Shown here: positions 13,414 to 45,895 of the stretch, piece by piece
Position numbering within the stretch: position 1 is the first letter of the stretch
How the letters are laid out: each line of letters opens with the position of its first letter
DNA from: a virus
DNA: 64,000 nucleotides
Virus record (IMG/VR): IMGVR_UViG_3300032326_000853
Span: 9,456 to 73,455 of that record
Reading direction: 5' to 3' (one strand)
The notes under the pieces: generated by a model
The model's input: only the letters and a program-made list of their open reading frames with translations
What the model was told of the DNA's origin: nothing
Database searches by the model: none
Position numbers and translations under genes: made by a program

Positions 13414-13442
13414 TTGCACCGCAACATATATAGTGTTATACT
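13414..13442 (+). promoter_or_regulatory. Promoter TTGCAC-17-TATACT with flanking small hairpins
   Basis: ttgcac at 13414-19, tatact at 13437-42. Hairpins gaaacact/agtgtttc and atgttgc/gcaacat nearby. Precedes a strong RBS 'AAAGGAGAAATAAGCATG'. Confidence 0.45.
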
Positions 13443-13528
13443 AGTGAAAACACTGATAGTGTTTCTACTAGTGATAGTGCTCATTAGAGGCTATCAAAAA
13501 CTCGCTTAACATTAAAGGAGAAATAAGC

Positions 13529-17294: not shown

Positions 17295-17491
17295 TTTTAG
17301 TAAAGAACCCACCTTAGGGCCGTTTGTCGCTACGGAAAAAGGCGTCCGCGCAATTGAACTGCACCGCGTAGTGTGCGCCGTATAAAGTAAGCGGCACCTA
17401 CTAAACTACCACTAAAGTGCTATACTAACAAAAAGTATAGTTCATAAATTACTATGAGCAACATTAGTTGCAATTTTAAATTAGGTAATTT

Positions 17492-18412
17492 ATGAAGAAA
17501 ATTATTTCTATGTTGTTGCTTTTGGCTTGCATGTCAAGTGCATGGGCTAAAGAAACAATTACAGTAGTATATGCATTTACTGTAAGTGATACTATGGCAA
17601 ATTATAGCAGAACGCTAATTGAAGAAGCCAACAAAGCACAAGACAAATATGTTTTTGTATTAGAAGCAAAACCAGGCGCTGGTGGTAGTATTGCGTCCCG
17701 ACATGTTGCAAACACACCAAATACTATTTTAGCAACGTCTGGTGCGTTTTTTGTACGCCCAAACTTCTTTCCAAATGAAAGTCACAAATTAGAAGACTTT
17801 AGAGAGTTGTTGGTTCAAAGTTCTGCTCCAATGAGTGCTTCCAGTGTAAAGTACAAGTCGTGGAAAGAAATCCCAGCTGATGCCCCCATTAACATTGGTG
17901 TAAGCGGCCTTGGTGTTGTTAGTCACTTGTCTGCTGTGCAAATTAAAACCAAATTCCCAAATGCAACAATTGTTCCATTTAAATCAACCACAGACGCATT
18001 GTTATCTATGTTAGGCGGCAACTTAGACATTGCAATCGGCTTTATGGGCGAGCAAGAAAAATGGTCTGACCAAAAAACTCCAGATGGTAAGAGTGTGACA
18101 ATTTTAGGTATCACTGGTCCCAAGAGTGTTAACGGTCGCCCAACTTATGTAAGTGCTGGTTTCCCGCAAGTGTTTACTAAAATGAATAACCCTAATCATT
18201 TAGTTGTTCCCAAGACAATGCCAGAAGCACAGTTCAAAGAGTTGCGAGAGATCCTTTACAAAGCTTCTAAGGCTAAAACAGTGACACAATCATATGAAGT
18301 TGACTTTGGATCTGCAGCCGACGTATCAACTGCCAAATTGGACGCTTGGTATGCTGAACAAGCCGAACACTGGGCAAAAGTAAGTGAGGTAGCCAAGGCA
18401 CAAATGAAATAA
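17492..18412 (+). CDS. Second Bug/TctC-like solute-binding protein (tandem paralog)
   Basis: Signal peptide MKKIISMLLLLACMSSAWA. Shared 'KETIT(I/V)VYA', 'KPGAGG(A/S)IA..HV', 'VPFKST.D' with 16383..17294. Confidence 0.45.
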   Translation: MKKIISMLLLLACMSSAWAKETITVVYAFTVSDTMANYSRTLIEEANKAQDKYVFVLEAKPGAGGSIASRHVANTPNTILATSGAFFVRPNFFPNESHKLEDFRELLVQSSAPMSASSVKYKSWKEIPADAPINIGVSGLGVVSHLSAVQIKTKFPNATIVPFKSTTDALLSMLGGNLDIAIGFMGEQEKWSDQKTPDGKSVTILGITGPKSVNGRPTYVSAGFPQVFTKMNNPNHLVVPKTMPEAQFKELREILYKASKAKTVTQSYEVDFGSAADVSTAKLDAWYAEQAEHWAKVSEVAKAQMK

Positions 18413-18562
18413 AATGTGCCCCAATTATACCAGTGTTTTAAACAACATATAAACGGCTAAATATTGGGCAAACTACAGGGAGTTTCTCTGTAGTTAAGCT
18501 AAATATATACGAGCCGAATGCTCACAACTTAGCTGAATGCTAATAAAAAGGAAATTTTTGTC

Positions 18563-19507
18563 ATGACAACAAAATTAACTTGGGTTCTAGCCCACGAGCC
18601 GTACGATCTATTCTTACGTGCCGCTGAAAAATTCTCAAAAGAAGTCAGCGAAAAAACTAACGGTGCTTTCGAAATCGAAATTCTTGGTATCCAAGAATAT
18701 GCTGCCAAGTACAACGGTGGCGTAGCTATTGATAACCGTTTTGGTCTATTAGACCTATTGGAGAGCGGTGCTGTTCAAATGAGCCAAATGTACACAACTA
18801 CATTGGGTCAATTGAGCCAGGACATGTTCGTCCTAGACTTGCCTTTCTTGTTTGAAGGCCACGACCACGCTGAGCGTGTGTTAGACGGTGCAGTTGGTCA
18901 ACAACTATTCGCTAAACTAGCCGAAGAGTCAAATGTTAAGGGCTTGGCCTTTACATACTCTGGTGGTTTCCGTATCATCCCAGCAACAGAAGCAGTTGAG
19001 AACTTAGAGTCTCTACGTGGCATGCGTGTTCGCGTTCCAGCATCTCCAGTTGCCAAGGACACATTCGAAGCTATCGGTGCAGTTCCAGTTGAAATGGCTA
19101 TTGAAGATCTAGCTGGTGCTTTGGCTGCTAAGACAGTTGACGCTGGTGAATCTACATACCCACGTATCTATGGTATGCAACAAGCTCAACACGCTGCCAG
19201 CATCGCTCACAGCGAGCACAGCTTGTTCTTGACATCATTGATCATCAACAAGACATTGTGGAACAGTTTAGACACAGCTACTCAGCAAGTTTTTGCTGAC
19301 GCCGCTTTGGCTGCTGCTCGTATCGAGCGTCAAGAGTCTATCGAAGACATCGCATTGACACAAGCTCGTGCTGTTAACGAAGGTATCAACGTTGTTCACT
19401 TCTCCGCAGAAGACAAGGCAGCTTTCAAAGCCGCTACTGCTCCTTTGCATGTTAAGTACGATAGCGTATTCACTTCTGGCCTAATCGGTCAAATCAAATC
19501 TGCTTAA
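18563..19507 (+). CDS. TRAP-transporter DctP-like solute-binding protein lacking a signal peptide
   Basis: 'KLTWVLAHEPYDLFLRAAEKFSKEVSEKTNGAFEIEI' matches the DctP N-terminal consensus (..LAH..P......AAEKFAELV.EKTNG...I.V). Begins MTTKLTW with no hydrophobic leader. Confidence 0.5.
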   Translation: MTTKLTWVLAHEPYDLFLRAAEKFSKEVSEKTNGAFEIEILGIQEYAAKYNGGVAIDNRFGLLDLLESGAVQMSQMYTTTLGQLSQDMFVLDLPFLFEGHDHAERVLDGAVGQQLFAKLAEESNVKGLAFTYSGGFRIIPATEAVENLESLRGMRVRVPASPVAKDTFEAIGAVPVEMAIEDLAGALAAKTVDAGESTYPRIYGMQQAQHAASIAHSEHSLFLTSLIINKTLWNSLDTATQQVFADAALAAARIERQESIEDIALTQARAVNEGINVVHFSAEDKAAFKAATAPLHVKYDSVFTSGLIGQIKSA

Positions 19508-19866: not shown

Positions 19867-19891
19867 CAAGTGCTCAAAATGGTGCTATACT
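19863..19891 (+). promoter_or_regulatory. Consensus sigma70 promoter TTGACA-17-TATACT (extended -10 TGcTATACT)
   Basis: ttgaca at 19863-68, 17-nt spacer, tatact at 19886-91. The gene with a GAGG RBS follows at 19924. Confidence 0.6.
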
Positions 19892-19923
19892 ATGCTTATC
19901 GTGACTAACATTCGAGGTCCAAG

Positions 19924-20460: not shown

Positions 20461-20772
20461 ATGAAAACTAAACTTTTAATTGCTGTGGTTGCGCTGTTGG
20501 CCTTGAGTGGATGTGCTACTCGTACAGGCACTGCAATTGTAGCAGGCACTGCTGGCATGGTCATTGGTAACGCAATGGCTCAACCCCGAGCAGTTGTTGT
20601 ACGTGAAGTTCCAGTTGTTGCACCTGAGCGAGTAATTATTGTCAACAATGCATGTGCCCAATACCATACTCACAGCGAGAGAAGTGCGTGTGAACGTGGT
20701 ACTCGTCAACGCTACTACGAAGAACAGCGTCGTCGAGAAAATGAAGCATATAGGCAGGGTTATGGTAGGTAA
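20461..20772 (+). CDS. Small lipoprotein
   Basis: MKTKLLIAVVALLALSGCAT contains a lipobox (LSGC). Confidence 0.5.
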   Translation: MKTKLLIAVVALLALSGCATRTGTAIVAGTAGMVIGNAMAQPRAVVVREVPVVAPERVIIVNNACAQYHTHSERSACERGTRQRYYEEQRRRENEAYRQGYGR

Positions 20773-21592
20773 GAATATTTTTGACACCTGGGGTATTGAA
20801 TACAATATCACCTTTGAGCAATTACTTGCACAAGAAAAAGCCACTTGGCAACGCATTTTAGTTGATCGTGGACTTATTGTGTTCCGCGGCCTTGGTCCCA
20901 ATTTGACCGATGCAGAATATCACTCCATTGGTGAAAAGTTTGGTCGTGTGTGGACTCAAGAAGACTACAAGCGCACCCCTACTGATACCACGATTAAACA
21001 TCGAGACACTACGCCTGTCAGCTATTTTCAAACCAACAACATGTGGGGCGCCAGGGACATGAAGTATCATGCTGACATGGCACATGTTGGAGAGAACAGT
21101 TTTCCGGCCCGAGCACTTTATATGGTGCGTGGCGCACAGAATCGCAGTGGTGAAACTTCTTGGTTAAACTTAGAAGCGGCTTGGGCACAGTTTACTCGTG
21201 AAGAAAAAGAACAGTTTAAAAACCATTTTATTGTACAACAAGACATGTACAAGCCAGGTACCAATTTGGTTAGATATCCTTTTCTAAAAGCCAATCCCAA
21301 AAGCGGAAAGTTTAGTCCGCGAGTCAACTGCTATGTCACACCTGGCAAAAATCAAGTTGCTTGGGTTCACCACGTTGAACACGATGACACGCCCGTAGAG
21401 GATTCGGGTGCATTTATTGAATCTGTGTATCAACTATGCGAAAGCAAACTCAATACTGTATATTCGCACACCTGGGATGATGGCGATTTGATTGTTTATG
21501 ATAATTGGAATTCGGTTCACAAGCGTACTGAAGTTAAACTGGCGCCTGGAGAATCTGATCGCTTGCTTAAACGATTAACTTTCAATATTTAA
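20763..21592 (+). CDS. Fe(II)/2-oxoglutarate dioxygenase, TauD/TfdA family
   Basis: 'YHADMAHVGENSFPARALYMVRGAQNRSGETSWLN' fits the TauD 'WHTD.TF...PP.G.IL.........GG.T.W'. C-terminal 'GDLIVYDNWNSVHKR' fits 'GDLVIWDNR..LH.A'. Start is ambiguous between 20742 and 20763. Confidence 0.65.
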
Positions 21593-23573: not shown

Positions 23574-23708
23574 TAATAAATTTTATAATTTTATAACAAT
23601 GCAATAAAGGGTAGTGGTAAGTGAAAGTCTAATACTGAAGTTGCTTGTAGTACTAGAGCAGGTATATTGATGCGTTCCCCCACTGTAAGTACTATACAGG
23701 GAACAAAT

Positions 23709-24398
23709 ATGAAACGAACAATTTATTTTGATACAGTAAGCAGTCAGTTCAGCGTAGACGCTAAGATTGCAATCAGTGACATTACCAACAGCACCATTGA
23801 CACTGTTGATTCGTGGCCAGCTCTTATGAGCCTGCTTTGCCAAGAATTGTGTCATGGTGAGGCGTCTGAAAATGATATTACATTAGTAATCTTTAATAAA
23901 GATACACTGTCATTTCCGGGTACTACAGTAAATGAAATTGTAGATGCACTAACAACAATTTCAACTATAGCAGGACCAAAAAAAGTAAGTGTAGGAATTT
24001 TAGTAAATGACAAATGCGAACAAAAGTTTATACAAGATTTAAAGAAAAGCAACATAAGCGGCATCGTACCAAACTATAAGAGTTTTGGAGATGCCGATTT
24101 CTTTGACGCCTTGAATACCTTACTGTCTGGAACTACGCACTGGCCCGAAGCATACATTGTGCCTAGAGTAAAGTTATCTACTAGAGCCACAGTGGAATAT
24201 GGTATTAGACTAACTGGGCGCCAAAGAGAAATCTTAGCCTTGGTGGCCAATCGCGGTTTGAGCAACAAAAAGATTGCACAGATTTTAAATATCAGCGAAA
24301 GCACTGTGAAAGTGCATATCAGTTCTATCCTAAAAGCATATGGAGTACGGAATAGGACACAGTTGGCCTTAGCCGGAAACAAAGGATTGCATGCGTGA
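23709..24398 (+). CDS. LuxR/FixJ-family HTH transcriptional regulator with uncharacterised N-terminal domain
   Basis: C-terminal GerE-type HTH 'LTGRQREILALVANRGLSNKKIAQILNISESTVKVHISSILKAYGVRNRTQLA'. The N-terminal 170 aa lack receiver-domain acid-pocket residues. Confidence 0.75.
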   Translation: MKRTIYFDTVSSQFSVDAKIAISDITNSTIDTVDSWPALMSLLCQELCHGEASENDITLVIFNKDTLSFPGTTVNEIVDALTTISTIAGPKKVSVGILVNDKCEQKFIQDLKKSNISGIVPNYKSFGDADFFDALNTLLSGTTHWPEAYIVPRVKLSTRATVEYGIRLTGRQREILALVANRGLSNKKIAQILNISESTVKVHISSILKAYGVRNRTQLALAGNKGLHA

Positions 24399-25101
24399 AA
24401 CACTGTCAGATATAGTTTATTTTTGCCCTTGGGTTTCATCTACAAAAAGTAAAAATTCACAAGCCAACGAGTTAAAGTCAATTGTCAGTGTAGCCGACAA
24501 CTTGAAACAGTTGTCAAATATTGAAGTTACTATTGCCCCAACTTGGGCCGCGCTTATTGAGCTCATGCAAGACAACAACCGAAATAACATGTTGGTGGTA
24601 TTTCGATTGGACTTCTTGGAGCGTGAAAATATGATGCTAGGCGAAGTGCTGACCATGCTGAGTTCACTGACCAAATTTGTATCCACAAAGACCATTAACA
24701 TTGCAGTGGTTGTACCCAGTGCATGTGACGCTGATTTGATTGCACAATTAAAAAGAAATGAAGTACTGGGTATTATTCCGGGCATGCGATTCTTTGATCA
24801 CAGTGACACAGTTGAAGCCTACGAGCGACTGCGTCGTGGACAAAGTCATTGGCCAGCTGTGGCAATTGAAGCACCAATGAAGCGATACGTTCGTAAGAAA
24901 AAAGGTGTAGACTTGACCAAGCGCCAAAGTGAAATCTTTGTTTTAATTGCCAAGCGTGGACTAAGCAATGCCAAGATTGCTGAGATATTGAAAATCAGCG
25001 AGTACACTGTCAAGATTCATGTTAGTGCAATTTTACGAAGGTACGGTGTTAAAAATAGAACACAACTTGCCCTGGCCAACACAACAGGCCCTATAACATA
25101 A
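24391..25101 (+). CDS. Second LuxR-family HTH regulator (tandem paralog)
   Basis: 'LTKRQSEIFVLIAKRGLSNAKIAEILKISEYTVKIHVSAILRRYGVKNRTQLALA'. Same architecture as the upstream gene. Confidence 0.75.
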   Translation: MRETLSDIVYFCPWVSSTKSKNSQANELKSIVSVADNLKQLSNIEVTIAPTWAALIELMQDNNRNNMLVVFRLDFLERENMMLGEVLTMLSSLTKFVSTKTINIAVVVPSACDADLIAQLKRNEVLGIIPGMRFFDHSDTVEAYERLRRGQSHWPAVAIEAPMKRYVRKKKGVDLTKRQSEIFVLIAKRGLSNAKIAEILKISEYTVKIHVSAILRRYGVKNRTQLALANTTGPIT

Positions 25102-25102
25102 A

Positions 25103-25127
25103 ATATCCCGGAAGGGATATTTTTTTG
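25103..25127 (+). terminator. Rho-independent terminator ATATCCC-GGAA-GGGATAT-TTTTTTT
   Basis: 7-bp stem plus T7 immediately after the stop at 25101. Confidence 0.75.
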
Positions 25128-25279
25128 ACTCTAGTACTGACGCACACCCTACTACTTTTGCTACAAGCAAATCGGCACTTTTTCCTTTAACTAATTTTGT
25201 ACAGCGGCAGAATCGAATCTACTGCTTACAATCCTAGGCAAACATACAGCCTAGAATTTTACTTTAAAGGAAAAATAAA

Positions 25280-25834
25280 ATGGCTGATATGCTAACAACC
25301 GATCCCTTCTTCAATTTGACAAACCAGGTGGCTGGTGTCCGTGAAAAGGTTTCTGACTCAATTTTCGAAAACTACAAACTACAAGTTGCTCAAACCAACG
25401 ACATCAACAACCGTGCCATGCAAGTTGCATTACACGACTCTAGCGAACTAGCTAACATCAAGCAAGAAATTGCCAACAGCACACTACAAACAATGTTGGC
25501 CGCTGCTCGTACAGACGCACAGATCGGTGCCACAAGTTCCGCTCAACAACGTTTGGTAATGGAACAAGCAGAAGCTACTCGTCGTTTAATCGTGGACTTG
25601 AACACACAAAACTTGAACACAGCATTGATCAACACAAACACAGCATTGACTGGTTTGGGCGTTCAATTCGGTGGTTTAGGTCTTGCATATGGTGGCGCTG
25701 TTAGTGCTTACCAAAGTGCTAACCAAGTAAGCGCAGTAAACGCATTACAAAGCGCAATCTCTAGCCAAGGTCTAGTTAACACAGGTACTATGACAGGTAC
25801 CACACAAACTTCTACACCTACTAGCATCAATTAA
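25280..25834 (+). CDS. Hypothetical protein (Ala/Gln/Thr-rich; C-terminal motif shared with 26125..26295)
   Basis: AAAGGAAAAATAAAATG RBS. C-terminus 'SAISSQGLVNTGTMTGTTQTSTPTSIN'. Confidence 0.45.
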   Translation: MADMLTTDPFFNLTNQVAGVREKVSDSIFENYKLQVAQTNDINNRAMQVALHDSSELANIKQEIANSTLQTMLAAARTDAQIGATSSAQQRLVMEQAEATRRLIVDLNTQNLNTALINTNTALTGLGVQFGGLGLAYGGAVSAYQSANQVSAVNALQSAISSQGLVNTGTMTGTTQTSTPTSIN

Positions 25835-25849
25835 TAGGAGGACTCTATT

Positions 25850-26071
25850 ATGTATAGATCCGGTATTATTGGTCTTGGATACGGTCGAGGTTACATGGGC
25901 GCAGGTATTGGTTATCCCTACGGCGCTTATGCAGGCATTGGTGGCTTTGGCTACCCAGGCTATGGCTTTGGGGGCATTGGCTTAGGCCTAGGCGGTTATG
26001 GTTATGGCTATGGTTACCCAGGCTATGGCTATGGCGGCTACTACGGTGGTATTTCAGGCGGCTTGTTATAA
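25850..26071 (+). CDS. Gly/Tyr-rich low-complexity structural protein (GYGYGYPGYGYGGYYGG)
   Basis: AGGAGG RBS. 73 aa, more than 45% Gly, about 20% Tyr. Followed by a terminator-like hairpin. Confidence 0.5.
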   Translation: MYRSGIIGLGYGRGYMGAGIGYPYGAYAGIGGFGYPGYGFGGIGLGLGGYGYGYGYPGYGYGGYYGGISGGLL

Positions 26072-26080
26072 AATGAGCAC

Positions 26081-26113
26081 AATGGGTTGGCTCACAAGGT
26101 CGACCCATTTTTT
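26081..26113 (+). terminator. Putative terminator (AATGGGT...ACCCATT + T6)
   Basis: 7-bp stem with a large loop and a TTTTTT tail after the stop at 26071. Confidence 0.4.
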
Positions 26114-26124
26114 AAGGAGTAAAA

Positions 26125-26295
26125 ATGTTTTCAGGTTATTATTATCCATACTATAGAAGTTTTATGTACCCCGTGAATCCATGGAGTTATAACACCAGCA
26201 ATGTTATTGGCAGTGCAATATCCAACCAAGGCTTTGTAAACACAGGTACCGCAGTGGGGGTGAATCAAATTTCAACCCCAACAGTTATATGGTGA
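26125..26295 (+). CDS. Small aromatic-rich protein sharing a C-terminal motif with 25280..25834
   Basis: Not in the ORF track (56 aa). AAGGAG RBS. 'MFSGYYYPYYRSFMYP...SAISNQGFVNTGTAVGVNQISTPTVIW'. Confidence 0.35.
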   Translation: MFSGYYYPYYRSFMYPVNPWSYNTSNVIGSAISNQGFVNTGTAVGVNQISTPTVIW

Positions 26296-26299
26296 TTAG

Positions 26300-26968
26300 A
26301 TGTACACAGTGACACACACTATCACTAAAGAACAATATGTTAATGGCCGATTGGTCAAGCCCATGGCCAGCGAATCTCTGCCAGTGGTGGTCATTAACGA
26401 AAAAACTATGACGTTTCGCATGGACAATCGTACACTATGGACACGTTATAGTTTGGGCATGATTAACTTTTCAGTTGCGCTGTATGGCAATGTGGACAGT
26501 GAAAATGTTCTAGAAAATTTAAAAAAGGCAGCGGCAGCTTGTGGTGAATATTTTGCACCATATTATGGCTTTAATGCTGCCAAAAAGGTCAGCAGTCTCT
26601 TAGCAGTCATTGTGGTCAATGGCAGCAAGGTTGCAGAGGCACTTAAGGCCAAAAGAGACATTGTGGCTTACGAAACAATTTGGGACAAACAAATTGATGA
26701 ACTTGCAAACTATCTCAATGAGCTTAATCCCAATTATTGGCCCAAGGACACACTCAACGAAATGTTCATTAACCTGACAGCACTGTGGACTGATGACTTT
26801 AAGGCCAGGCTGATCAAGGACTTTGTAGCAGATTCAATTGCACTTGATAACATTGTAAAAGTTGCAGTGTCGGGTATTCCCAATCATATCAACAAGGGTT
26901 ATACCAGCATTGCTGATACCATTAGCAAAGGAATTATTGCACAGTCACCATTGGAGTTTACAAACTAA
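26300..26968 (+). CDS. Hypothetical protein (paralog of 29177..29824)
   Basis: Shared N-terminus 'MY..THTI..E' and a shared 'NYW..D' motif with 29177..29824. Confidence 0.45.
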   Translation: MYTVTHTITKEQYVNGRLVKPMASESLPVVVINEKTMTFRMDNRTLWTRYSLGMINFSVALYGNVDSENVLENLKKAAAACGEYFAPYYGFNAAKKVSSLLAVIVVNGSKVAEALKAKRDIVAYETIWDKQIDELANYLNELNPNYWPKDTLNEMFINLTALWTDDFKARLIKDFVADSIALDNIVKVAVSGIPNHINKGYTSIADTISKGIIAQSPLEFTN

Positions 26969-26972
26969 CATC

Positions 26973-27215
26973 ATGGCAGTACTGAGTTCAAATAAAGATA
27001 TAGAATTAACTGACTTAGAAACGCATGTTGCGTTATGTGCTCAACGCCGACGAGCACTTGAACTTCGCTTAGATAATGTAGAGCGCAAGATTTCACAAGC
27101 AGATGAAAGATCAGATCGAATTAAAATCTTGGTACTGGGAGGATTAGTTTCTCTTGCTGTTGGCATAGCCGGAACTATATTTGCAGTGCTATTAAAACAC
27201 GGAGTACTGCAATGA
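26973..27215 (+). CDS. Small membrane-anchored coiled-coil protein
   Basis: C-terminal TM 'ILVLGGLVSLAVGIAGTIFAVLL'. Start inferred at the ATG just after the upstream stop. Confidence 0.35.
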   Translation: MAVLSSNKDIELTDLETHVALCAQRRRALELRLDNVERKISQADERSDRIKILVLGGLVSLAVGIAGTIFAVLLKHGVLQ

Positions 27216-27754
27216 ACAATCAACAACTGGCAGAACAACGCCGCTTAGAAGAAATATTAAAACTTGCTAGAATGCAACTCAATGAAGAGTACATGAAGAA
27301 GCACTCGGCTGCACATACTGCTTGGTTAACTGGTGCAAGAACAGCATGGAACAGCAGTGGGATTCTACTGCCATTTGCCACCAAATTTGTCTACCCGTCT
27401 GAAGAAGAAGTAGTGGCACGTGGAGTTGAGATTTACAATACACTAACACCAAAGACTGCAACAGCGCCTGTAACACCTGCCACAATTATCGAACAGCCGC
27501 AGACTATGGAAGAAGTTGTAATTGAACCCACAGTTGAATTACTGCAAGCAGGCGGGGATTTTGTATTAGCAGAAGTTGTTGAAGAAGAATCGCCGGTGGA
27601 AGAAGTTGTGCCGCTTGCAGTCGAAGAAGATATTACAGACGTTGAAGTAAAAGAAGAAACTCCCAATGTCCCAGAACCAACTGTGACTGATTCTCTAATA
27701 GAGAACCGATTTAAAAGCCTATTCACCAAGTGGGGCGGCCGTGGTAATTTTTAA
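27212..27754 (+). CDS. Hypothetical acidic protein (EEVV repeats)
   Basis: Glu/Val-rich C-terminal half. Confidence 0.4.
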   Translation: MNNQQLAEQRRLEEILKLARMQLNEEYMKKHSAAHTAWLTGARTAWNSSGILLPFATKFVYPSEEEVVARGVEIYNTLTPKTATAPVTPATIIEQPQTMEEVVIEPTVELLQAGGDFVLAEVVEEESPVEEVVPLAVEEDITDVEVKEETPNVPEPTVTDSLIENRFKSLFTKWGGRGNF

Positions 27755-27766
27755 GGAAAACAAAAC

Positions 27767-28252
27767 ATGATGTTTAACAATTTAGGCCTGTATTCGTACT
27801 GGCAGTATCGCAGACGCAGACCCGGACGTAGTAGCCCACGGCCCCTGGCTCGCAGGGGAGGCTTTCCGCTTATTCAACAAATTGGCGGTGCTGGCCAAGA
27901 CTTTTTTATCAATGGCGGCACGGGACCTGCGGGACCGCCTGGCCCTCCGGGACCACCTGGTACTCCTGGCCTGGTGCCTGTGACCATTGTTACAACTACA
28001 CCATTTACGCCCACGCTGACAAATTATCTATTGGATATAAATGTAGCAGGACCTTCCAGTGTGGTGCTTCCTGTAAGCCCAACTGGCACAGTTTTTATTG
28101 TCAAAGACTTTAGCGGTAATGCTTCTACTAATCCCATTACAATAACAGCCGTTGGCGGAACGTTATTTGACGGTAATGCAAATGCCACTATCAATGCGGA
28201 CTACGGTGCTTTGCAATTGGTATTCAATGGAACAGAATGGAGTATAGTGTAA
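27767..28252 (+). CDS. Short collagen-like protein with conserved C-terminal beta domain (family member 1 of 3)
   Basis: 'GPAGPPGPPGPPGTPG', then 'LP.SPTGTVFIVKDFSGNAS.NPITI...GG.L.DGNANATI.A.YGALQLVF.G.EW'. Confidence 0.5.
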   Translation: MMFNNLGLYSYWQYRRRRPGRSSPRPLARRGGFPLIQQIGGAGQDFFINGGTGPAGPPGPPGPPGTPGLVPVTIVTTTPFTPTLTNYLLDINVAGPSSVVLPVSPTGTVFIVKDFSGNASTNPITITAVGGTLFDGNANATINADYGALQLVFNGTEWSIV

Positions 28253-28284
28253 GATACACTATCAATTTTTAAAGGAAGACAACT

Positions 28285-28683
28285 ATGTCATATACAAACA
28301 ATCCAACTTCAATACTTGCAGGAACAGGTATTACAGTTACACCCACAACTGGCACCGGTGCCAACACTATTACTATTGCTGCCACTGGCGTAGTAATCAC
28401 AGCAATTAGAATTGCCATAGCGACCCCCGTAGTAGTAGCACCTACAGATGCAGCCGTTAGTGTACAAGTTCCAGGACCTGTACCTGTGGCTGTTACATTG
28501 CCGATTGGCGTAACTGGCCAAACTTTTATCATCAAAGATGGTCTAGGCTTGGCTAGTGTTGCAACACCTATTACTATTACACCCGCCGCAGGTAGTATTG
28601 ATGGCGCTATCACAGCTACAATTACAGCACCTTATGGTTCATTGACAATGATCTATGACGGTGTACAGTGGTTACTAACTTAA
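28285..28683 (+). CDS. Fibre-like protein sharing the C-terminal domain (family member 2)
   Basis: 'LPIGVTGQTFIIKDGLGLAS..TPITI....GSIDGAITATI.APYGSLTMIYDGVQW'. Confidence 0.5.
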   Translation: MSYTNNPTSILAGTGITVTPTTGTGANTITIAATGVVITAIRIAIATPVVVAPTDAAVSVQVPGPVPVAVTLPIGVTGQTFIIKDGLGLASVATPITITPAAGSIDGAITATITAPYGSLTMIYDGVQWLLT

Positions 28684-28689
28684 TCAATT

Positions 28690-29163
28690 ATGGCCTACAA
28701 TAGACAACCACAAACAGTATTAGCGGGGATGGCGCTAAAGCAAAATCCTCCTCCAACCATCTTACAACCTGCCGGAATTGTTGCAGTGACATTAGATGCT
28801 GACATAGCAACTACCGCCAGCCTGGGCGTAGTCCAAATTGGCAGTGGCTTGTCTATTACTCCCGGCGGTGTATTGTCAGCAACAGGAAGCAGTAGTGGCT
28901 TACTCAACGTAAAATTAACATCCATTGACTATACTGCTACAGTATCTGATTATTACATTGGTGCTACTAAGAAAGACATTGAAATAACTTTACCTTTAGG
29001 AGTAACCGGTAAAGTTTATATTGCCAAAAATCAAGTCAGCGGAAATATCAAGGTTAAAGCATCAGGTGGACAAAAAATAGACACGGCATCTGATGTAAAT
29101 CTGGGCACAAATAACAGCATTGTTGTTGTGTTTGACGGTACACGATGGAACGTCATTGAATAA
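28690..29163 (+). CDS. Fibre-like protein sharing the C-terminal domain (family member 3)
   Basis: 'LPLGVTGKVYIAKNQVSGNIKV.ASGGQKID......LG.N.SIVVVFDGTRW'. Confidence 0.5.
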   Translation: MAYNRQPQTVLAGMALKQNPPPTILQPAGIVAVTLDADIATTASLGVVQIGSGLSITPGGVLSATGSSSGLLNVKLTSIDYTATVSDYYIGATKKDIEITLPLGVTGKVYIAKNQVSGNIKVKASGGQKIDTASDVNLGTNNSIVVVFDGTRWNVIE

Positions 29164-29176
29164 AAGGAAATAAATC

Positions 29177-29824
29177 ATGTATAAAAAAATTACACATACC
29201 ATTGTCGAAGAGCACTTCGATCATCCCATGGGCGTTGGCATTGCAGCCAACGTAGGCCTACCCAAATTGGGGCGCCACACAATTGCCGAAGTTATGTCAA
29301 GTGGTCAATTCAAGACCTACGTTGACAACTATTTTATGGAAACAGAAGACAAGCTGGTTGAATTTGCTAACGCAACATTTGACGAGAATCTTGATTTCCA
29401 GTCTGCTATTGCCAATGCTATGAATTACGAATCTCTAGGCAACACCTTGGGCAAATATTACGATGTTGAATTCCAGGAACGCTTTAATCAGAACATGGGC
29501 ATTTGGATTATGCAATTGTTGTACTACTGGAGAAACTCTATTCGTAAACTTGACAACAAAGAGACCCTAGCAAGACTAAAGACTCAAGCCTGGGCCATGT
29601 CACAAATAATGAATCAGTACAACAACTACTGGGACAGAGATATTCTAAGAGCACTACTAGACGACTTCCTTGGAGAGTTCGTAAACTTAGGCAATGCTAA
29701 ATTGGCAAAAAACAAGGCCAACGAAACTGCTTCCTTGGATCGCATTGCAGCCGCTGGTTCAAAACTATCCAACTATCTTGCCAATGGTGTTATACAACAG
29801 CACCCCGAGTTGTTTAGTGTCTAA
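29177..29824 (+). CDS. Hypothetical protein (paralog of 26300..26968)
   Basis: See 26300..26968. Confidence 0.45.
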   Translation: MYKKITHTIVEEHFDHPMGVGIAANVGLPKLGRHTIAEVMSSGQFKTYVDNYFMETEDKLVEFANATFDENLDFQSAIANAMNYESLGNTLGKYYDVEFQERFNQNMGIWIMQLLYYWRNSIRKLDNKETLARLKTQAWAMSQIMNQYNNYWDRDILRALLDDFLGEFVNLGNAKLAKNKANETASLDRIAAAGSKLSNYLANGVIQQHPELFSV

Positions 29825-30501
29825 TGCCCAAACAAGCAGTTGACCTTAGAGAATGGGCCAGTCCCGTTGAAGAACAATGGCAACTGGGTAGTTGCACTGC
29901 ACAGGCAGTAATCGGTGCTTATGAATTATTGACTAAGATGCACTACCCAGACCAATTTGTTGATCTAAGTAGATTGTTTTTGTACTACAATGCTAGAAAA
30001 ATTGCAGGCGACGTAGAAGAAGATGTTGGGGCGTATGTTTCAACTGCTTTGACGGCAATTGAGTTATACGGACTTTGTAGGGAAGATCTATGGCCATATG
30101 ATGCTGGCCGATTCAAAGTTGAACCTGGATATAAATGCTATCGCGATGCCAAAATGCGATCTATAACCAACGTTCGTGAAGTTACTTCACATGACATGAT
30201 CATTGACATGCTTGATCGTCAGTATCCAGTTGTAGTTGGTGTTGCTGTTTATTCAGGATTTGACTCTATTGACAATCAAACAACAACTTTAAAAATGCCT
30301 ATGACTGCTGAGGAGCCCATTGGTAGTCATGCCATGTGCATTGTTGGATACAATGATGCCCGGCAAGCATTTTTAGTAAGAAACAGCTTTGGTGACGACT
30401 GGGGCGAAGGCGGATATTTTTGGGTTCCCTTTGTGTACGCAGACGAAAATTTTTCAGATATGTGGACTTTTGATGTGAAATTAAACGGTATAAACAGTTA
30501 A
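29824..30501 (+). CDS. Papain-like cysteine protease (peptidase C1 family)
   Basis: 'EEQWQLGSCTAQAV' (the QxxxGSCWA Cys motif). 'GSHAMCIVGYND' (His) and 'FLVRNSFGDDWGEGGYFWV' (the Asn-Ser-Trp-Gly motif). Confidence 0.65.
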   Translation: MPKQAVDLREWASPVEEQWQLGSCTAQAVIGAYELLTKMHYPDQFVDLSRLFLYYNARKIAGDVEEDVGAYVSTALTAIELYGLCREDLWPYDAGRFKVEPGYKCYRDAKMRSITNVREVTSHDMIIDMLDRQYPVVVGVAVYSGFDSIDNQTTTLKMPMTAEEPIGSHAMCIVGYNDARQAFLVRNSFGDDWGEGGYFWVPFVYADENFSDMWTFDVKLNGINS

Positions 30502-30525: not shown

Positions 30526-30627
30526 CTTTTTGTTGCTAAAAAACAACACTTTTTGACCAAAAAAAGCTCAAAAAACAGCCCAAAATGCCAGAAAAAGGTT
30601 GACCATCTGGACCAGAACCAGTATAAT
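30526..30627 (+). promoter_or_regulatory. Promoter-operator cassette, copy B: TTGTTGC..CAACA IR, 'CAGCCCAAAATGCC' box. It has TTGACC-17-TATAAT with a TCTGGaCCAGA palindrome in the spacer.
   Basis: ttgacc at 30599-604 and tataat at 30622-27. Gene with AGGAG RBS at 30661. Confidence 0.6.
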
Positions 30628-31609: not shown

Positions 31610-32404
31610 ATGAAACGCATTGCAACTCTTTCCCTTATTGCGGCCGCTGTCTTGGCCACTGGCTGTACTCGAATCGAAACCGGTGAGGTTGGTGTTCGTG
31701 TTGGATTTGACAAGCAGGTTCAGCCTGGCGAATTGCTACCAGGTTCTTTCAATCAAGTCTTGATTGGTGATGTGCTTACATTCCCTATCAAGGATGTCAA
31801 TGTTGCACTTAACGACATGACTCCCGTGGCCGCAGACAACAGCACAATGAAAGACTTTGATGCTGTGGTTGTTTATAACATCAACCCTCAACAGGTAGCA
31901 GAACTGTACAGTACCAAGAACAAGGCATTCCATGCTGAGATGAAGGGTGACACTTATGTAATGTACAACTACATTGTTCAAAATGCTCGTAATGCTATCT
32001 ACAAGGCCGCACGTAAGTATGAAGCCTTGGACATGGCCGACAAGCGAAGCGAAATGGAAAAGTTTATCCAAGATGAAATCGTTCGCAATTTGGCAGAAGA
32101 AAAACTAGACGGTACTATCATGATCAGTCAAGTCTTGATTCGTAATGTTGTGCCAGCAGATTCAGTTGTTGAAAGTGCCAACGCACTGGTCCGTGCCAAG
32201 AACGAACTCAAGCAAAAGGAAGTTGAAGTTAAAACTGCCGAAGCTGAAAGCCGTCGTATGGCCGCATTGGCAAATAACAGTGCCAGCTCAATTGCGTTTA
32301 TGCAAGCACAGGCCATGTTAAATATCTCAGAAGGTATTAAAGCAGGCAAAGTGCAGACTATTGTTGTTCCCAGTAACTTTAACGCACTCATGATGCCCAA
32401 ATAA
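31610..32404 (+). CDS. SPFH/band-7 domain lipoprotein
   Basis: Lipobox 'VLATGCT'. Band-7-like 'EVGVRVGFDKQVQPGEL ... VKTAEAESRRMAALA' C-terminal Ala/Glu-rich helix. Confidence 0.55.
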   Translation: MKRIATLSLIAAAVLATGCTRIETGEVGVRVGFDKQVQPGELLPGSFNQVLIGDVLTFPIKDVNVALNDMTPVAADNSTMKDFDAVVVYNINPQQVAELYSTKNKAFHAEMKGDTYVMYNYIVQNARNAIYKAARKYEALDMADKRSEMEKFIQDEIVRNLAEEKLDGTIMISQVLIRNVVPADSVVESANALVRAKNELKQKEVEVKTAEAESRRMAALANNSASSIAFMQAQAMLNISEGIKAGKVQTIVVPSNFNALMMPK

Positions 32405-32722
32405 ATGGGCAAGATGACACCTGAAGAGTTAGAAGAACTTTGGAAGTTTGTCTTGACACCTAAAATTAAAAAACCTATCAAGAGTGTAGTGCCAACCGAA
32501 CTACACTATGACCTAATGGGGCGGGAGTTCAAAGAAGGCCAGTACGTTGCAGTCAGTGACGGTGGCCTTTATATTGCTCAGGTAAAACGCTTCACTCCTA
32601 AAATGGTCGAAGTAGAAAAGGTTGGTAGCAAGTATCGTAGCAAGCGATTAAAGTACGCAAGCGATATGGTTATTCTTGATGGGCCCGATGTGTTTATGTG
32701 GGTGCTGGCCAATGGACTTTAA
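32405..32722 (+). CDS. Hypothetical protein
   Basis: ATGGGC overlapping the upstream stop. Confidence 0.4.
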   Translation: MGKMTPEELEELWKFVLTPKIKKPIKSVVPTELHYDLMGREFKEGQYVAVSDGGLYIAQVKRFTPKMVEVEKVGSKYRSKRLKYASDMVILDGPDVFMWVLANGL

Positions 32723-32957
32723 AAACAAAGATGACGCACATGACTTCTTGGTAAAAATTGGTGCCATTCGTCCCAATGAGCGTACCTTGCAAGGGCAAGA
32801 AAAAGAAGAGATGATGCTTATCTTAAAGATCCTTACTCCCACACACTCAACAAACAATCAACGGTTCATCAACGAGCACTACAGGTATGGCAATTTTGAA
32901 TATTCAGTTACATTTTTTGATGAATCCGAATACGAAATCATTGAGATTGAATCATAA
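32712..32957 (+). CDS. Hypothetical protein
   Basis: ORF with start near 32712. The ORF track gives 32676. Confidence 0.3.
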   Translation: MDFKNKDDAHDFLVKIGAIRPNERTLQGQEKEEMMLILKILTPTHSTNNQRFINEHYRYGNFEYSVTFFDESEYEIIEIES

Positions 32958-32993
32958 CTCATAATTACATAATAGTTTTAAAGGAAACCAAGA

Positions 32994-33194
32994 ATGGCAG
33001 ATATTATCGATGACGCACAAGAAGCAATGGAAGCGGCCGAAGAACTTCGACGAGCCACTGCAAAGGCATTCAAGCCAATTCGTACGGGCTTTTGCCTTGA
33101 GTGCGAAGAACCAACAGAGTTTACATTCTGTTGTGTAGATTGCAGGGACTCCCACGAAAAACGAGAGAAGATGAAGGCCATCAACGGCAAATGA
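32994..33194 (+). CDS. Small zinc-ribbon protein (CxxC...CxxC)
   Basis: 'CLECEEPTEFTFCCVDC'. AAAGGAAACCAAGAATG RBS. Confidence 0.4.
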   Translation: MADIIDDAQEAMEAAEELRRATAKAFKPIRTGFCLECEEPTEFTFCCVDCRDSHEKREKMKAINGK

Positions 33195-33231
33195 TGTAGT
33201 TACCGTAAAATGCAGTTCAGGTAAATATCTG

Positions 33232-34455
33232 ATGCGTTTACGTGAACTATTATCAGAAGTCAAAATTGACAACAAAGACGGGGCAGGTGCAGTTCCTTTT
33301 AATCAAGACATTGATTACTTTGGACTACGCACCACAATGCGTCCAAGTACATTCTTGCGATTGGCTGCTCCGCTGGGACAAGAACACAGCGCCAAGCTAG
33401 AAAAATACATTGCTGACGGTGGTGCAATTGGCGCCCCATTCTTAGACATTAAAATCCCCCAGGAATGGGACGACGGCGACTTTTCTAAGCCTGCACAAGT
33501 TGCGGGACATGAAGGTCGCAATCGCATGACTGCTATTAAAAAGCTAGAAGGCGATGCGCCTGTTGAAGTACATATTTTACCACGTGGCGGATATCGTGCT
33601 AGAGACATTACTCCAGAATTCAAAGCCGCCCTGGCCAAGAGCTTGTATGCAGAAAAAAGTACATCGTTAGTGACAGGCCCGCTATTTGAAGATGAACTAG
33701 AAGAAGGATGGAAAGACACTATGGCCAACTTGGCCATTGCTGGTGGCATTGCTGCCGGTGGTATAGGAGGCATGGCTGCAAAACAGGCGGCGCAAGATTA
33801 CTTTAAAGAGCCTACTGCGGCAGTAGCTCAGGCAACAACAAAAGCACCAGAAGTTCCAAAGACATTTGCACAAGCCAAATCTGCACCAAGTGCGCCTGCT
33901 GCCGTTAAAGCAGAGCCCAAACCTGAAGTACAGAAAAAACTCAATGTACAACCTATTACTGGCAATCCTTTGGAAGCTACGTTATTAAAAGTTGCCAAAT
34001 CTTCTGGCCTACAAGGTTCCGAACTTGCGGCATTTATGGCTCAATGTGCTCATGAAACCTTGGACTTTAAACGTCTGGTAGAATTTGGCGGTAGCTTAGA
34101 CTTCCGCAAATATGATCCAAAATATGCACCCAAGAAAGCCAAGGCCCTAGGCAACAAGCAAGTGGGAGATGGTGCCAAATACAAAGGTCGTGGCTTTATT
34201 CAAATCACTGGCCGTTACAATTACAAACGTGCAGGGGAAGCACTGGGCTTAGATTTAGTAAATCATCCAGAATTAGCCGAAGATCCAGCAACAGCAGCCA
34301 AGATTGCTGTTTGGTTTTGGAAGCATAGAGTGCAACCCAACGTAGACAACTTTAAAAATACCACTGATGTTACCAAGCAAATTAACCCCGGCATGCGAGG
34401 ATTAGAACAGCGCAAGGATAACTTTGCTGATTACATGCAAGTTGCCATGCGATAA
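33232..34455 (+). CDS. Glycoside hydrolase family 19 (chitinase/lysozyme-like) peptidoglycan hydrolase. It has a 250-aa N-terminal extension and an internal Ala/Gly-rich hydrophobic segment.
   Basis: GH19 motifs 'FMAQCAHETLDF', 'YKGRGFIQITGRYNY', 'AVWFWKHR'. N-terminal MRLRELL motif. Segment 'MANLAIAGGIAAGGIGGMAAKQAA'. Confidence 0.7.
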   Translation: MRLRELLSEVKIDNKDGAGAVPFNQDIDYFGLRTTMRPSTFLRLAAPLGQEHSAKLEKYIADGGAIGAPFLDIKIPQEWDDGDFSKPAQVAGHEGRNRMTAIKKLEGDAPVEVHILPRGGYRARDITPEFKAALAKSLYAEKSTSLVTGPLFEDELEEGWKDTMANLAIAGGIAAGGIGGMAAKQAAQDYFKEPTAAVAQATTKAPEVPKTFAQAKSAPSAPAAVKAEPKPEVQKKLNVQPITGNPLEATLLKVAKSSGLQGSELAAFMAQCAHETLDFKRLVEFGGSLDFRKYDPKYAPKKAKALGNKQVGDGAKYKGRGFIQITGRYNYKRAGEALGLDLVNHPELAEDPATAAKIAVWFWKHRVQPNVDNFKNTTDVTKQINPGMRGLEQRKDNFADYMQVAMR

Positions 34456-37251: not shown

Positions 37252-37731
37252 ATGAAAAAGATAACTTTAGCCTTAGCAGTGGTATTAAGTGGAGCCCCGA
37301 ATGCCGCTGAATTACAACACAATTTCAATAGTCCAGCCTTTAGTGGTGTGGGCTATTCGTCACATGTTCTAACTTTAAAACAGTTAGAAGATCAACAAAA
37401 AGACAAAAACAGACAGGCAGCAGAAGCATTAAAAGCTGCCGCTGAACGTGAGGCCGCAAATACGCCGCAAGCACGTTTTAAAGCCAGTATGGAAACTCGC
37501 ATTTATAGTGAGTTAGCCAAACGCATTAGCGATAGTCTATTTGGTTCTAGTCCAAATGCACCAACATGTACTCCAACATCAAGTGGTGGCCCATGTGGCG
37601 ATATTGACATTGGCGGTCAAAATATTACTTGGAGAATCCAAGGTACAAATATCATTGTTAGAATTTCAGAAATTGCAAATCCTAACAACTATACAGAATT
37701 AGTAATGCCTTATGCGGCATTTAACATCTAA
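37252..37731 (+). CDS. csgF: CsgF-like curli assembly protein (secreted)
   Basis: Signal peptide MKKITLALAVVLSGAPNAA. 'ELQHNFNSPAFSGVGYSSHVLTLKQLEDQ' parallels E. coli CsgF '[28 protein letters not shown]'. Size 159 aa. Confidence 0.45.
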   Translation: MKKITLALAVVLSGAPNAAELQHNFNSPAFSGVGYSSHVLTLKQLEDQQKDKNRQAAEALKAAAEREAANTPQARFKASMETRIYSELAKRISDSLFGSSPNAPTCTPTSSGGPCGDIDIGGQNITWRIQGTNIIVRISEIANPNNYTELVMPYAAFNI

Positions 37732-37741
37732 GGAAATAAAC

Positions 37742-38623: not shown

Positions 38624-38770
38624 GTTTAAGAAAAACCGTGCATAGATCTTGCTTGTACAGTATGTAGGTCTTGGAAAAACTTACACTCTCTGGCAAGATC
38701 ATAGAGAGTTAATTAACGGGATAAATCCCAAGGAGCTAGGCAGAGAAGAATAATCTGTTTAGGTTTTAAA

Positions 38771-39568: not shown

Positions 39569-39573
39569 AATCA

Positions 39574-45876: not shown

Positions 45877-45895
45877 TCTAATCCATATTATGGAC

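Follow-up and report, generated by a model that had tools for sequence, protein, structure and literature searches.

Branched receptor-binding and adaptor proteins of phages, such as T4 gp9 and gp10, CBA120 TSP4 and TSP2, G7C gp66 and the N-terminus of T4-like gp34, are characterized by gp10/gp9-like XD domains. A further group comprises short trimeric capsid fibres or spikes, represented by Pa223 gp52 and the phi29 head fibres, with T4 Hoc and fibritin as functional analogues. Small Tyr-rich proteins, for their part, are known from coat and cement systems, including the Bacillus spore coat, where CotC/CotU occur together with the collagen-like BclA, the coat protease YabG and the regulator GerE, as well as the high-Gly/Tyr keratin-associated proteins and mussel Mfp-3. 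Here, features recalling each of these systems were found in a stretch of 64,000 nucleotides of viral DNA (IMG/VR record IMGVR_UViG_3300032326_000853, positions 9,456 to 73,455), hereafter designated as the window. By comparative sequence evidence, the region 23.7-30.5 kb of the window forms a single accessory module that is conserved in a clade of aquatic, uncultured jumbo phages. Its recurrent core comprises a GerE-type regulator, a helical protein with a C-terminal tag (the product of g25280, hereafter the tagged protein), one to four fibre proteins, a papain-family (C1) cysteine peptidase, two types of Tyr-rich micro-proteins and a protein with a C-terminal transmembrane (TM) helix. Tentatively, and with somewhat less than even confidence, we propose that this module builds a virion-associated, separately regulated accessory structure made of fibres and cement. 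All coordinates are positions within the window, module genes are all on the plus strand and are designated by their start positions (Table 1), and dN/dS denotes the ratio of non-synonymous to synonymous divergence.

The likeness to branched adaptor systems is confined to the XD-type domain shared by three of the fibre proteins. In contrast to those systems, this domain (XD1) is found here at the C-terminus of short proteins of 132-161 amino acids (aa), or up to 291 aa in relatives, with no enzymatic or receptor-binding head; the module genes lie outside the tail/baseplate cluster, and branched adaptor systems have no counterpart of the Tyr-rich micro-proteins, the tagged helical protein or the protease. 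Short trimeric capsid fibres and spikes share no sequence homology with the module. The knob of Pa223 gp52 adopts a TNF fold, unlike the XD1 domain, and g25280 differs from fibritin in having no coiled-coil heptad pattern. In the module, very small proteins of 40-75 aa, in which 22-45% Tyr is accompanied by Gly, Arg, Pro and Cys, occur alongside collagen-like fibres, a cysteine protease and a GerE-family regulator. Spore coat and exosporium, keratin with its associated proteins, and byssus likewise combine small Tyr-rich proteins with collagen-like fibres, and the Bacillus spore coat further associates them with a cysteine protease and a GerE-type regulator. This resemblance to spore coat, keratin-associated proteins and Mfp-3 is solely compositional and organisational, with no detectable homology.

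An earlier reading of the window, made from the sequence alone and hereafter the sequence-only reading, had described a self-contained module, and this view was borne out: the same gene set recurs in close relatives and in a jumbo phage of 332 kb and, at about 30% identity, in dozens of further viral contigs. The open reading frames (ORFs) that it named were all recovered on the plus strand at the positions assigned to them, but several conserved members had been overlooked, namely the upstream GerE/LuxR-type regulators, the C-terminal-TM protein and an acidic Pro/Glu/Val-rich protein. An identical module is carried by a 41.5-kb ENA metagenome scaffold, and five IMG/VR contigs with 76-91% identity agree with it in both gene content and gene order. 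In the 332-kb genome (LR797824, 'uncultured Caudovirales phage UFOVP71', hereafter UFOVP71), the module is syntenic, and a GerE regulator is followed by a 188-aa tagged protein, a 56-aa Gly/Tyr peptide, a Tyr-rich tagged peptide, a helical protein, a 75-aa C-terminal-TM protein, an acidic protein, five fibre-type proteins, a helical paralog and a Peptidase_C1 protein. Searches with a distant sub-alignment of the tagged family gathered 64 viral loci at about 30% identity (50 after redundancy removal), on contigs up to 400 kb, and module-protein homologs were found on contigs up to 367 kb. A fibre gene with the same type of C-terminal domain lies directly downstream of the tagged gene in 58 of the 64 distant loci, and a C1 peptidase gene is found beside such fibre genes in 38. 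Of the 50 non-redundant loci, 30 contain the C-terminal-TM protein, 26 an untagged Tyr-rich micro-ORF and 25 a small ORF that is both Tyr-rich and tagged. All module genes of the window are under purifying selection (dN/dS 0.05-0.35).

One of the distant contigs, L100, contains every member of the set, at about 30% identity but in another gene order. A psbD (photosystem II D2)-like ORF is located 0.7 kb from this distant version of the module (L100 6350-7210, minus strand), and L100 is therefore probably a cyanophage. Hosts of the clade are probably diverse. The tagged family is essentially absent from cellular genomes, where the only matches were two short contigs with module genes (L119 and L120) binned into a Chitinophagales metagenome-assembled genome, which are probably phage DNA. 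The window itself had no nucleotide match (megablast) among 50,697 deposited phage genomes, and neither megablast nor tblastn detected the module in these 50,697 records; no cultured phage was found to carry it. Given the 41.5-kb scaffold, UFOVP71 and the long contigs with homologs, the window is assigned to an uncultured jumbo phage of aquatic origin. Full-text literature searches returned no description of such a module. Known families account for the XD1 proteins, the peptidase and the regulators. For the tagged family and its tag, the Tyr-rich micro-proteins, the TM and acidic proteins and the helical paralogs, no annotated relative was found in the libraries searched; sequence and profile searches of Pfam, PHROGs, NCBIfam, PADLOC and PDB gave no match for any of these proteins. 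A known anti-phage defence system was considered and rejected, as PADLOC defence models gave only generic matches at the level of the helix-turn-helix (HTH) domain, for the two regulators, and no module protein matched beyond that level.

The products of 27767, 28285 and 28690 had been grouped in the sequence-only reading as a collagen-like trio. Their shared C-terminal domain was confirmed by pairwise comparisons (E-values of 8e-18, 4e-8 and 5e-8), as was the collagen-like character of the first, whose run consists of six Gly-X-Y triplets (GTG PAG PPG PPG PPG TPG). This run is too short to reach the gathering score of the Pfam Collagen family (PF01391; 13.7 vs 27.2 bits), and between 5 and 39 collagen triplets occur in 49 of the 90 distinct relatives with this C-terminal domain. 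In L100, the collagen run is flanked by Cys clusters. An AlphaFold model of 28690 predicts an all-beta C-terminal domain of ~85 residues (predicted local distance difference test, pLDDT, 73-85) preceded by a disordered N-terminal half, as expected for the monomer of a trimeric fibre. In structure comparison, the domain fits the type of beta-sandwich (~80-95 residues) that superposes on gp9, gp10 or TSP4 XD1, a fold otherwise found in phage tailspike, baseplate and capsid-spike proteins. Sequence evidence pointed weakly in the same direction, with matches of the trio to phrog_20556 ('baseplate protein', 1e-5) and to phrog_972 and phrog_967 (about 2e-3), and a tblastn match to an HVTV-1 'gp9/gp10-like baseplate protein' (6e-3); PDB searches gave no sequence match for the domain. 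In the model, then, the trio domain is an XD1-type, T4 gp9/gp10-like beta-sandwich of the kind found in phage fibre and baseplate adaptors, and the three products are predicted to be fibre-type proteins with collagen or beta-repeat stalks ending in that domain. The TNF/C1q-like trimer envisaged in the sequence-only reading did not hold up, the ~85-residue XD1-type sandwich being distinct from the ~130-residue ten-strand jelly-roll of C1q, TNF or BclA.

The gene g25280, whose most constant partners are such fibre genes, encodes a helical protein whose C-terminal tag recurs in the small product of g26125. The common tag had been noticed from the sequence alone and is well supported, with 63% identity over 30 aa (E 4e-9) and a local score of 92 vs 23+-4 for shuffled sequences (z=16.4). 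With an invariant Q..N.G......Q pattern in a Q/N/G/T-rich context, it is the best-conserved part of the protein across the tagged family. This family has 772 homologs and is narrow, forming 26 clusters at 50% identity in an exhaustive search of 1.84 billion representatives; a distant branch, with 25-30% identity, retains mainly the C-terminal third, ending in RQGMVNFGTMAGVGQSSTSNNVR. The N-domain of g25280 is amphipathic and helical, with a periodicity of 3.6 residues (hydrophobicity power 40 at period 3.6, 0 at 3.5), and no hydrophobic N-terminal helix is present (maximum N-terminal hydropathy 0.52). No match to g25280 was found in Pfam, PHROG, NCBIfam or PDB. A fibritin-like coiled coil was also considered for this protein and rejected, since the heptad score did not exceed that of shuffled sequences, 75% of which attain it.

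Several features of g25280 are marks of a very abundant product. The protein is 96% identical in five relatives in which neighbouring genes are 55-91% identical, with a dN/dS of 0.06-0.08. Synonymous divergence is itself suppressed (dS 0.33-0.43 vs about 0.9-3 for most neighbouring module genes), and codon bias is strong, the effective number of codons being among the lowest in the window (34.0 vs 46.6+-4.7). Together with the Gly/Tyr gene g25850, g25280 forms a two-gene unit bounded by two good intrinsic terminators and preceded by a conserved leader, features which, taken with the low dS, the codon bias and the high identity, would be expected of a highly expressed gene. The remaining module genes are tightly packed downstream of this unit.

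A terminal motif of ~30 aa, rich in Q/N/G and common to adjacent genes, is also a property of prion-like amyloid signalling systems of the HET-s/NWD2 and Bell/BASS style. By that analogy, the tag would template the activation of the helical protein, for instance to damage membranes and time lysis or cell death. The arrangement of a helical N-domain, a Gly-rich linker and the motif, with its invariant Q..N.G......Q, fits such a scheme, and so does the acidic residue at position 3 of g25280 (MAD), as one has been noted for Bell and HeLo N-termini (10.1101/2020.01.06.895854). However, these systems differ from the module in that no NLR/STAND partner bears the motif, no NLR is found in the module at any locus, both copies of the motif are C-terminal, the N-terminus of g25280 is not a hydrophobic helix and has no HeLo-type Pfam match, and the setting is that of a phage. 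A death effector would not be expected to show signs of very high expression, nor would its gene be constantly linked to fibre genes and a protease, and we consider this explanation very unlikely. Membership in Bell/BASS/HeLo was rejected, as the defining NLR partner and the N-terminal hydrophobic helix are both absent.

The Tyr-rich micro-proteins form the second group of proteins without annotated relatives. The sequence-only reading had described the g25850 product as nearly all Gly/Tyr; its composition was confirmed at 44% Gly and 22% Tyr, a sum of 66% that makes 'nearly all' a slight overstatement. This is a real gene, kept in seven loci with a strong ribosome-binding site (RBS) and a dN/dS of 0.14-0.23, indicative of purifying selection. 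Both ends are conserved in the seven loci (N-terminus MYRSGI.GLG..RGY.GAGIGYPYG, C-terminus GYGYGGYYGGISGGLL), and the GYGYP-type repeat core between them changes in length only through in-frame indels. Orthologs of g26125 were found in all close loci and follow the same pattern of variation. More broadly, g25850 is a Gly-expanded variant, connected by intermediates, of a Tyr-rich family of 31 distinct sequences of 42-72 aa, with on average 34% Tyr, 13% Gly, 11% Pro, 10% Arg and 4% Cys. At least two Cys are present in 24 of the 31, often as GC.PYY.RYCPYY and in several with a C-x8-C spacing. The most Tyr-rich composition noted was that of a 46-aa peptide of L100 with about 45% Tyr. These Cys pairs, and the Cys clusters flanking the L100 collagen run, hint at an extracellular location. 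No peroxidase or laccase is encoded within the conserved module, and a search of the module for crosslinking enzymes (peroxidase, laccase, tyrosinase, transglutaminase) found none.

Micro-proteins of 42-72 aa with conserved Cys pairs, adjoining a cysteine protease gene, could also be taken for precursors of ribosomally synthesized natural products that the C1 peptidase would release, especially as several radical-SAM genes are found elsewhere in the window. Against this, the conserved module includes no modifying enzyme, the peptides are conserved over their full length with no leader/core split, and the tag of one of them recurs in a family of proteins of 184-360 aa. This origin is extremely unlikely in our view.

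The C1 cysteine protease predicted at 29824-30501 was unambiguous (Pfam Peptidase_C1, 58.3 bits vs a cut-off of 20.7). Its closest solved relative is the bacterial C1A protease PDB 3OIS (E 1e-29, about 200 residues aligned), and the motifs carrying the catalytic Gln, Cys, His and Asn (QLGSCTA, GSHAMCIVGY and RNSFGDDWGE) align with 3OIS and cathepsins. The likeness to Xylellain-type bacterial papain-like proteases such as 3OIS thus resides in the aligned domain and the conserved catalytic motifs. The difference is that the phage enzyme, encoded inside a fibre module, begins at about the start of the mature domain, with no pro-region: the first aligned positions are residue 14 in the phage enzyme and residue 68 in 3OIS. 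It has neither an N-terminal hydrophobic segment nor a signal peptide, and is predicted to be a catalytically intact, cytoplasmic papain-type protease. Because it is present in 38 of the 64 distant loci, the peptidase is regarded as integral to the module and not as a chance neighbour; lone homologs outside the module were found in Burkholderia phage FLC9 and in a 595-kb uncultured phage.

A protease encoded next to abundant small proteins also invites comparison with head maturation. T4 internal proteins and the phiKZ inner body would be the analogues if the tag were a capsid-targeting peptide, and the tagged and Tyr-rich proteins were packaged inside the head and matured by the C1 peptidase. 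A terminal tag common to otherwise unrelated proteins and the presumed high abundance are compatible with this scheme, and the N-terminal MYKKITHxIxEE motif of the helical paralogs contains IxE, the context cleaved by T4 gp21-type proteases. Yet the most constant partners of the tagged gene are fibre proteins of an external type, the surroundings contain neither a portal or capsid gene nor a prohead protease from a known family, the tag is C-terminal, unlike the T4 targeting sequence, and no C1 peptidase is known to serve as a head-maturation protease. An internal head location is accordingly quite unlikely.

Genes 26300 and 29177 were confirmed as full-length paralogs (19.6% identity, E 6e-6, z=8.8). 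As proposed from the sequence alone, they bracket the set in this lineage, but they are not general members of the module: since they were found in only 5 of the 64 distant loci, the helical-bundle paralogs are a lineage-specific addition. The model of 26300 (pLDDT 86) is an up-down helical bundle whose structural neighbours are generic, consisting of rhodopsins and designed bundles at 6-11% identity, besides its own uncharacterised family in BFVD. Enzymatic folds in these paralogs had been named in the sequence-only reading as an argument against a structural role, and neither 26300 nor 29177 exhibits one. A 218-aa UFOVP protein matched by the 26300 model (Foldseek TM-score 0.73) is probably the ortholog of 29177, its length being equal to that of L008:15032-15688. 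A further match of this model (m95e8e185ca03) is to a protein of 209 aa from Bodo saltans virus that bears the label 'glycosyl transferase' (Foldseek E 1e-4, TM-score 0.73-0.77, 12% identity). Between the paralogs, the product of 26973-27215 contains the sole hydrophobic segment of TM grade in the module (KD19 2.35), with orthologs in UFOVP71 (75 aa) and L100 (140 aa). The acidic protein encoded at 27212 also has an ortholog in UFOVP71 and a counterpart with PEPV repeats in L100. No signal peptide was detected in any module protein.

Two regulator genes, each encoding a C-terminal HTH of the GerE/LuxR type, precede g25280, and a GerE gene is found immediately upstream of the tagged gene in UFOVP71 and in five of five distant loci sampled. 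Neither regulator has a Pfam Response_reg match to a receiver domain. For regulator 1, the NCBIfam matches ErdR, CsgD, FimZ and BglJ reach into a receiver-like region at scores far below their cut-offs, and the ErdR, CsgD and FimZ alignments take in only the last part of that region. The terminator 3' of the regulator genes is preserved in relatives by compensatory changes, and the leader of g25280 is conserved even in the distant UFOVP71. This leader includes a ACTGACGC..CTAnTACT block, an invariant CCTTTAACTAAT at 25184-25195 that occurs once in the window, and a CTAGG/CCTAG hairpin right before the RBS. For the adjacent GerE-type regulators, these blocks offer candidate elements at the operator, promoter and mRNA levels. 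Elsewhere in the window, the conserved motifs of this leader do not recur, and no Rfam family matches the leader or any other part of it. A weaker ACTGAAG..GTAGTACT copy was noted at 23634-23654, upstream of the first regulator gene.

In the fibre-plus-cement structure that we tentatively favour, the XD1 proteins would form trimeric short fibres or adaptors on the particle. The tag may act as a small beta-prone unit for docking or oligomerisation (strand, N-x-G turn, strand), joining the abundant helical protein and the Tyr-rich micro-protein in one assembly, while micro-proteins rich in Tyr, Arg, Pro, Gly and Cys would provide cement or adhesive through pi-cation contacts, disulfides or dityrosine. 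The peptidase would trim or mature components, in the cytoplasm or on the particle, and the TM protein may tether the assembly to the inner membrane. The coherence of the gene set across loci, the marks of abundance of g25280, the Cys-based hint of an extracellular location and the restriction of the family to phages speak for this proposal, and the short trimeric capsid spike of phage Pa223, anchored through its ~40-residue N-terminus (10.1101/2025.06.11.659172), offers a precedent. Several observations weigh against it. Confidence in the model of the C-terminal domain is moderate (pLDDT 73-85 for the domain itself and 58 for the whole model), the helical N-domain of g25280 has no heptad coiled-coil signal and is thus not a fibritin-like shaft, and the conserved set includes no oxidase able to make dityrosine. 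No cultured phage was found to carry the module, which sits among accessory and metabolic genes, not in a structural cluster. Virion structural genes, moreover, do not usually include a membrane-anchored member or come with their own response-regulator-like transcription factor.

The same features could denote an intracellular, non-virion structure, such as a membrane-tethered scaffold or a condensate-like compartment nucleated by the Tyr-rich micro-proteins and the tagged protein; the XD1 proteins would then be clients or repurposed adaptors, and the protease would remodel the structure. Gly/Tyr/Arg-rich low-complexity sequences are classic self-associating 'stickers', the module proteins have no signal peptide and one has a C-terminal TM anchor, and dedicated regulators, an accessory-gene setting and signs of very high expression are all in keeping with such a structure. 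However, once the peptidase and the regulators are set aside, the sole recognisable fold in the module is one of virion fibre and baseplate families, and collagen stalks and Cys-rich members are better suited to an extracellular, oxidising location; on balance, we consider an intracellular structure unlikely. A proposal that we would also treat as improbable when taken as a whole is that these jumbo phages produce a self-assembling composite material. A tag that is possibly cross-beta or templating would join the abundant helical protein to the Tyr-rich micro-proteins, with the micro-proteins (up to ~45% Tyr, and Cys) as cement, the collagen-like XD1 proteins as fibres, the protease in charge of maturation and the regulator as a switch. 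The outcome would be a viral counterpart of spore coat/exosporium, keratin/KAP or byssus chemistry: an adhesive coat or 'hair', borne by the particle or else situated on or inside the infected cell, that promotes adhesion in dilute aquatic habitats. The probability left over beyond the favoured structure and the alternatives listed here falls to something not considered.

If true, the fibre-plus-cement proposal would add a new layer to phage particle architecture, composed of accessory fibres and Tyr-rich cement with a dedicated protease and regulator, in widespread, uncultured aquatic phages of 200-400 kb that include cyanophage-like ones. The analysis also defines several unannotated families, namely that of the tagged helical protein, that of the Tyr-rich micro-proteins, in which a C-x8-C is conserved, and the 30-residue tag. 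Being abundant in metagenomes, these families are well suited as markers of the clade. Research on biomaterials and protein assembly could find the short tag of interest, as well as the Tyr-rich peptides, whose size and composition resemble those of mussel foot proteins.

Table 1. Genes and predicted regulatory elements of the module (dG, folding free energy; GXY, collagen triplet)
Feature	Position	Strand	Basis and remarks
GerE/LuxR-type HTH regulator 1	23667..24398	+	Pfam GerE 3e-16; ATG start at 23706 probable; atypical, NarL/FixJ-like
GerE/LuxR-type HTH regulator 2	24391..25101	+	Pfam GerE 1e-14; length and layout resemble regulator 1
Intrinsic terminator, hairpin then U-tract, 3' of regulator genes	25100..25128	+	dG -11.9 kcal/mol, z -2.75
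Non-coding leader/promoter region of g25280, highly conserved	25129..25279	+	Alignment of 7 loci including UFOVP71
Tagged helical protein, 184 aa	25280..25834	+	N-domain ~1-125, Gly-rich linker, tag at residues ~154-184 (nt 25739-25831)
Gly/Tyr-rich micro-protein, 73 aa	25850..26071	+	Composition; conserved termini; dN/dS
Intrinsic terminator ending the g25280-g25850 bicistronic unit	26081..26112	+	dG -16.3 kcal/mol, z -4.2, then U6
Tyr-rich micro-protein with g25280-type C-terminal tag, 56 aa	26125..26295	+	Tag similarity z=16.4
Helical-bundle protein, paralog A, 222 aa	26300..26968	+	Disordered N-terminal ~30 aa with conserved MYKKITHxIxEEH-type start
Small coiled/helical protein, 80 aa, C-terminal TM helix	26973..27215	+	Start given by gene callers, 26910
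Acidic protein, 180 aa	27212..27754	+	Helical N-domain, Pro/Glu/Val-rich linker, conserved C-terminal FKSLFTKWGGRG
Collagen-like short fibre protein, 161 aa, predicted XD1-type C-terminal domain	27767..28252	+	Six GXY triplets; PHROG matches
Short fibre protein 2, 132 aa, predicted XD1-type C-terminal domain	28285..28683	+	E 8e-18 to 27767; PHROG matches
Short fibre protein 3, 157 aa	28690..29163	+	G-x-V-x-V-G-S-G-L fibre repeat and predicted XD1-type C-terminal domain, residues ~73-157
Helical-bundle protein, paralog B of 26300, 215 aa	29177..29824	+	E 6e-6, z 8.8 vs 26300
Papain-family (C1A) cysteine peptidase, 225 aa	29824..30501	+	Pfam; start codon overlaps 29177 stop codon

About 7 kb downstream of the module, a CsgG homolog (37712-38623, Pfam 8.5e-53) lies in a gene cluster extending over 37252-42590 and 45915-47966. 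Phage CsgG/CsgF systems have no known substrate (PMC7029224, PMC9004378), and the tagged proteins and Gly/Tyr peptides might be suspected of filling this role, given the CsgD-like NCBIfam similarity of the regulator and the loosely curlin-like pattern of the tag (S..Q.G..N..Q). The CsgD match, with 51 bits vs a cut-off of 250, is however generic for NarL/FixJ-type proteins. No Sec signal peptide and no Curlin_rpt match at E<=0.1 were detected, and the motif is present in a single copy with a different Q-N-Q spacing. Furthermore, among 46 viral CsgG loci, module genes occur within 10 kb only in the closest relatives, and UFOVP71 carries the module with no CsgG within 10 kb. The idea, to which we give next to no credence, was rejected on these grounds, namely the lack of signal peptides and curlin repeats and the independence of the two gene sets across the 46 CsgG loci and UFOVP71. 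This removes a tempting hypothesis, as the module proteins are not the missing substrates of phage CsgG/CsgF channels, and the CsgG cluster is a module independent of the fibre module.

In the 46 viral loci, the constant partners of CsgG are a 159-aa upstream ORF in the CsgF position (phrog_35372), a 265-aa ORF, a FecR-domain protein and an F5/8 type C protein. A further partner, of 683 aa, is annotated as 'adenylate/guanylate cyclase' in Melnitz and HTVC008M (41% identity). These observations extend the substrate-less phage 'curli operon' known from pelagimyophages to the jumbo phages considered here. The region 31610-34455, which separates the CsgG cluster from the fibre module, is probably a lysis region: a lipoprotein-like protein with an N-terminal signal/lipobox-like sequence is encoded at 31610-32404 (phrog_200 'lipoprotein'), and a 407-aa protein with a C-terminal GH19 chitinase/endolysin domain at 33232-34455 (phrog_181, 8e-40).

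The tail-fibre-like genes that the sequence-only reading had placed at the 5' end of the window were also recovered, 213-1316 with matches to collagen and tail-fibre PHROGs and 3687-5786 with matches to tail-fibre PHROGs. Immediately after the tail-fibre-like genes (213-5786), an S8 subtilase is encoded at 5808-7328 (Pfam 2.8e-32, phrog_9158 3e-68) and may be a fibre-maturation protease. The window carries an unusual load of enzyme genes, at 7332-8189, 9829-11472, 42618-44612, 56450-57991 and 61483-62943, whose products are a nitroreductase, a B12-binding radical-SAM protein, an amidoligase and two more radical-SAM proteins; this set may be involved in peptide or nucleotide modification. Upstream of the module, 12349-13377, 17492-19507 and 20639-21592 encode a UvdE UV-damage endonuclease (5e-30), TctC- and DctP-type periplasmic solute-binding proteins and a TauD dioxygenase, the TctC-type, DctP-type and TauD labels being precomputed Pfam matches on scaffold L001.

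Generic sigma-70 and terminator scans of the window did not exceed chance, and T4-type late promoters were rejected, with a single TATAAATA in the window, below chance expectation. Sigma-70-type promoters were nonetheless noted in the intergenic regions 13378-13528, 17295-17491, 19867-19923, 51080-51176, 30599-30627 and 45877-45929, some with an extended -10 of the TGnTATACT type and one with a near-perfect TTGACC-17-TATAAT at 30599; these are probably early promoters for the host RNA polymerase. The sole minus-strand gene block of the window (48983-51063) encodes a 235-aa multi-TM protein, with histidine-box-like HRKHH and HNNHH motifs resembling those of membrane desaturases, followed by several small membrane proteins. 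Finally, a 1392-aa ORF at 52251-56429 has no family match except over residues 337-395, where 59 residues are 47% identical to a small hypothetical protein found in KVP40-like Vibrio phages (phrog_13298).

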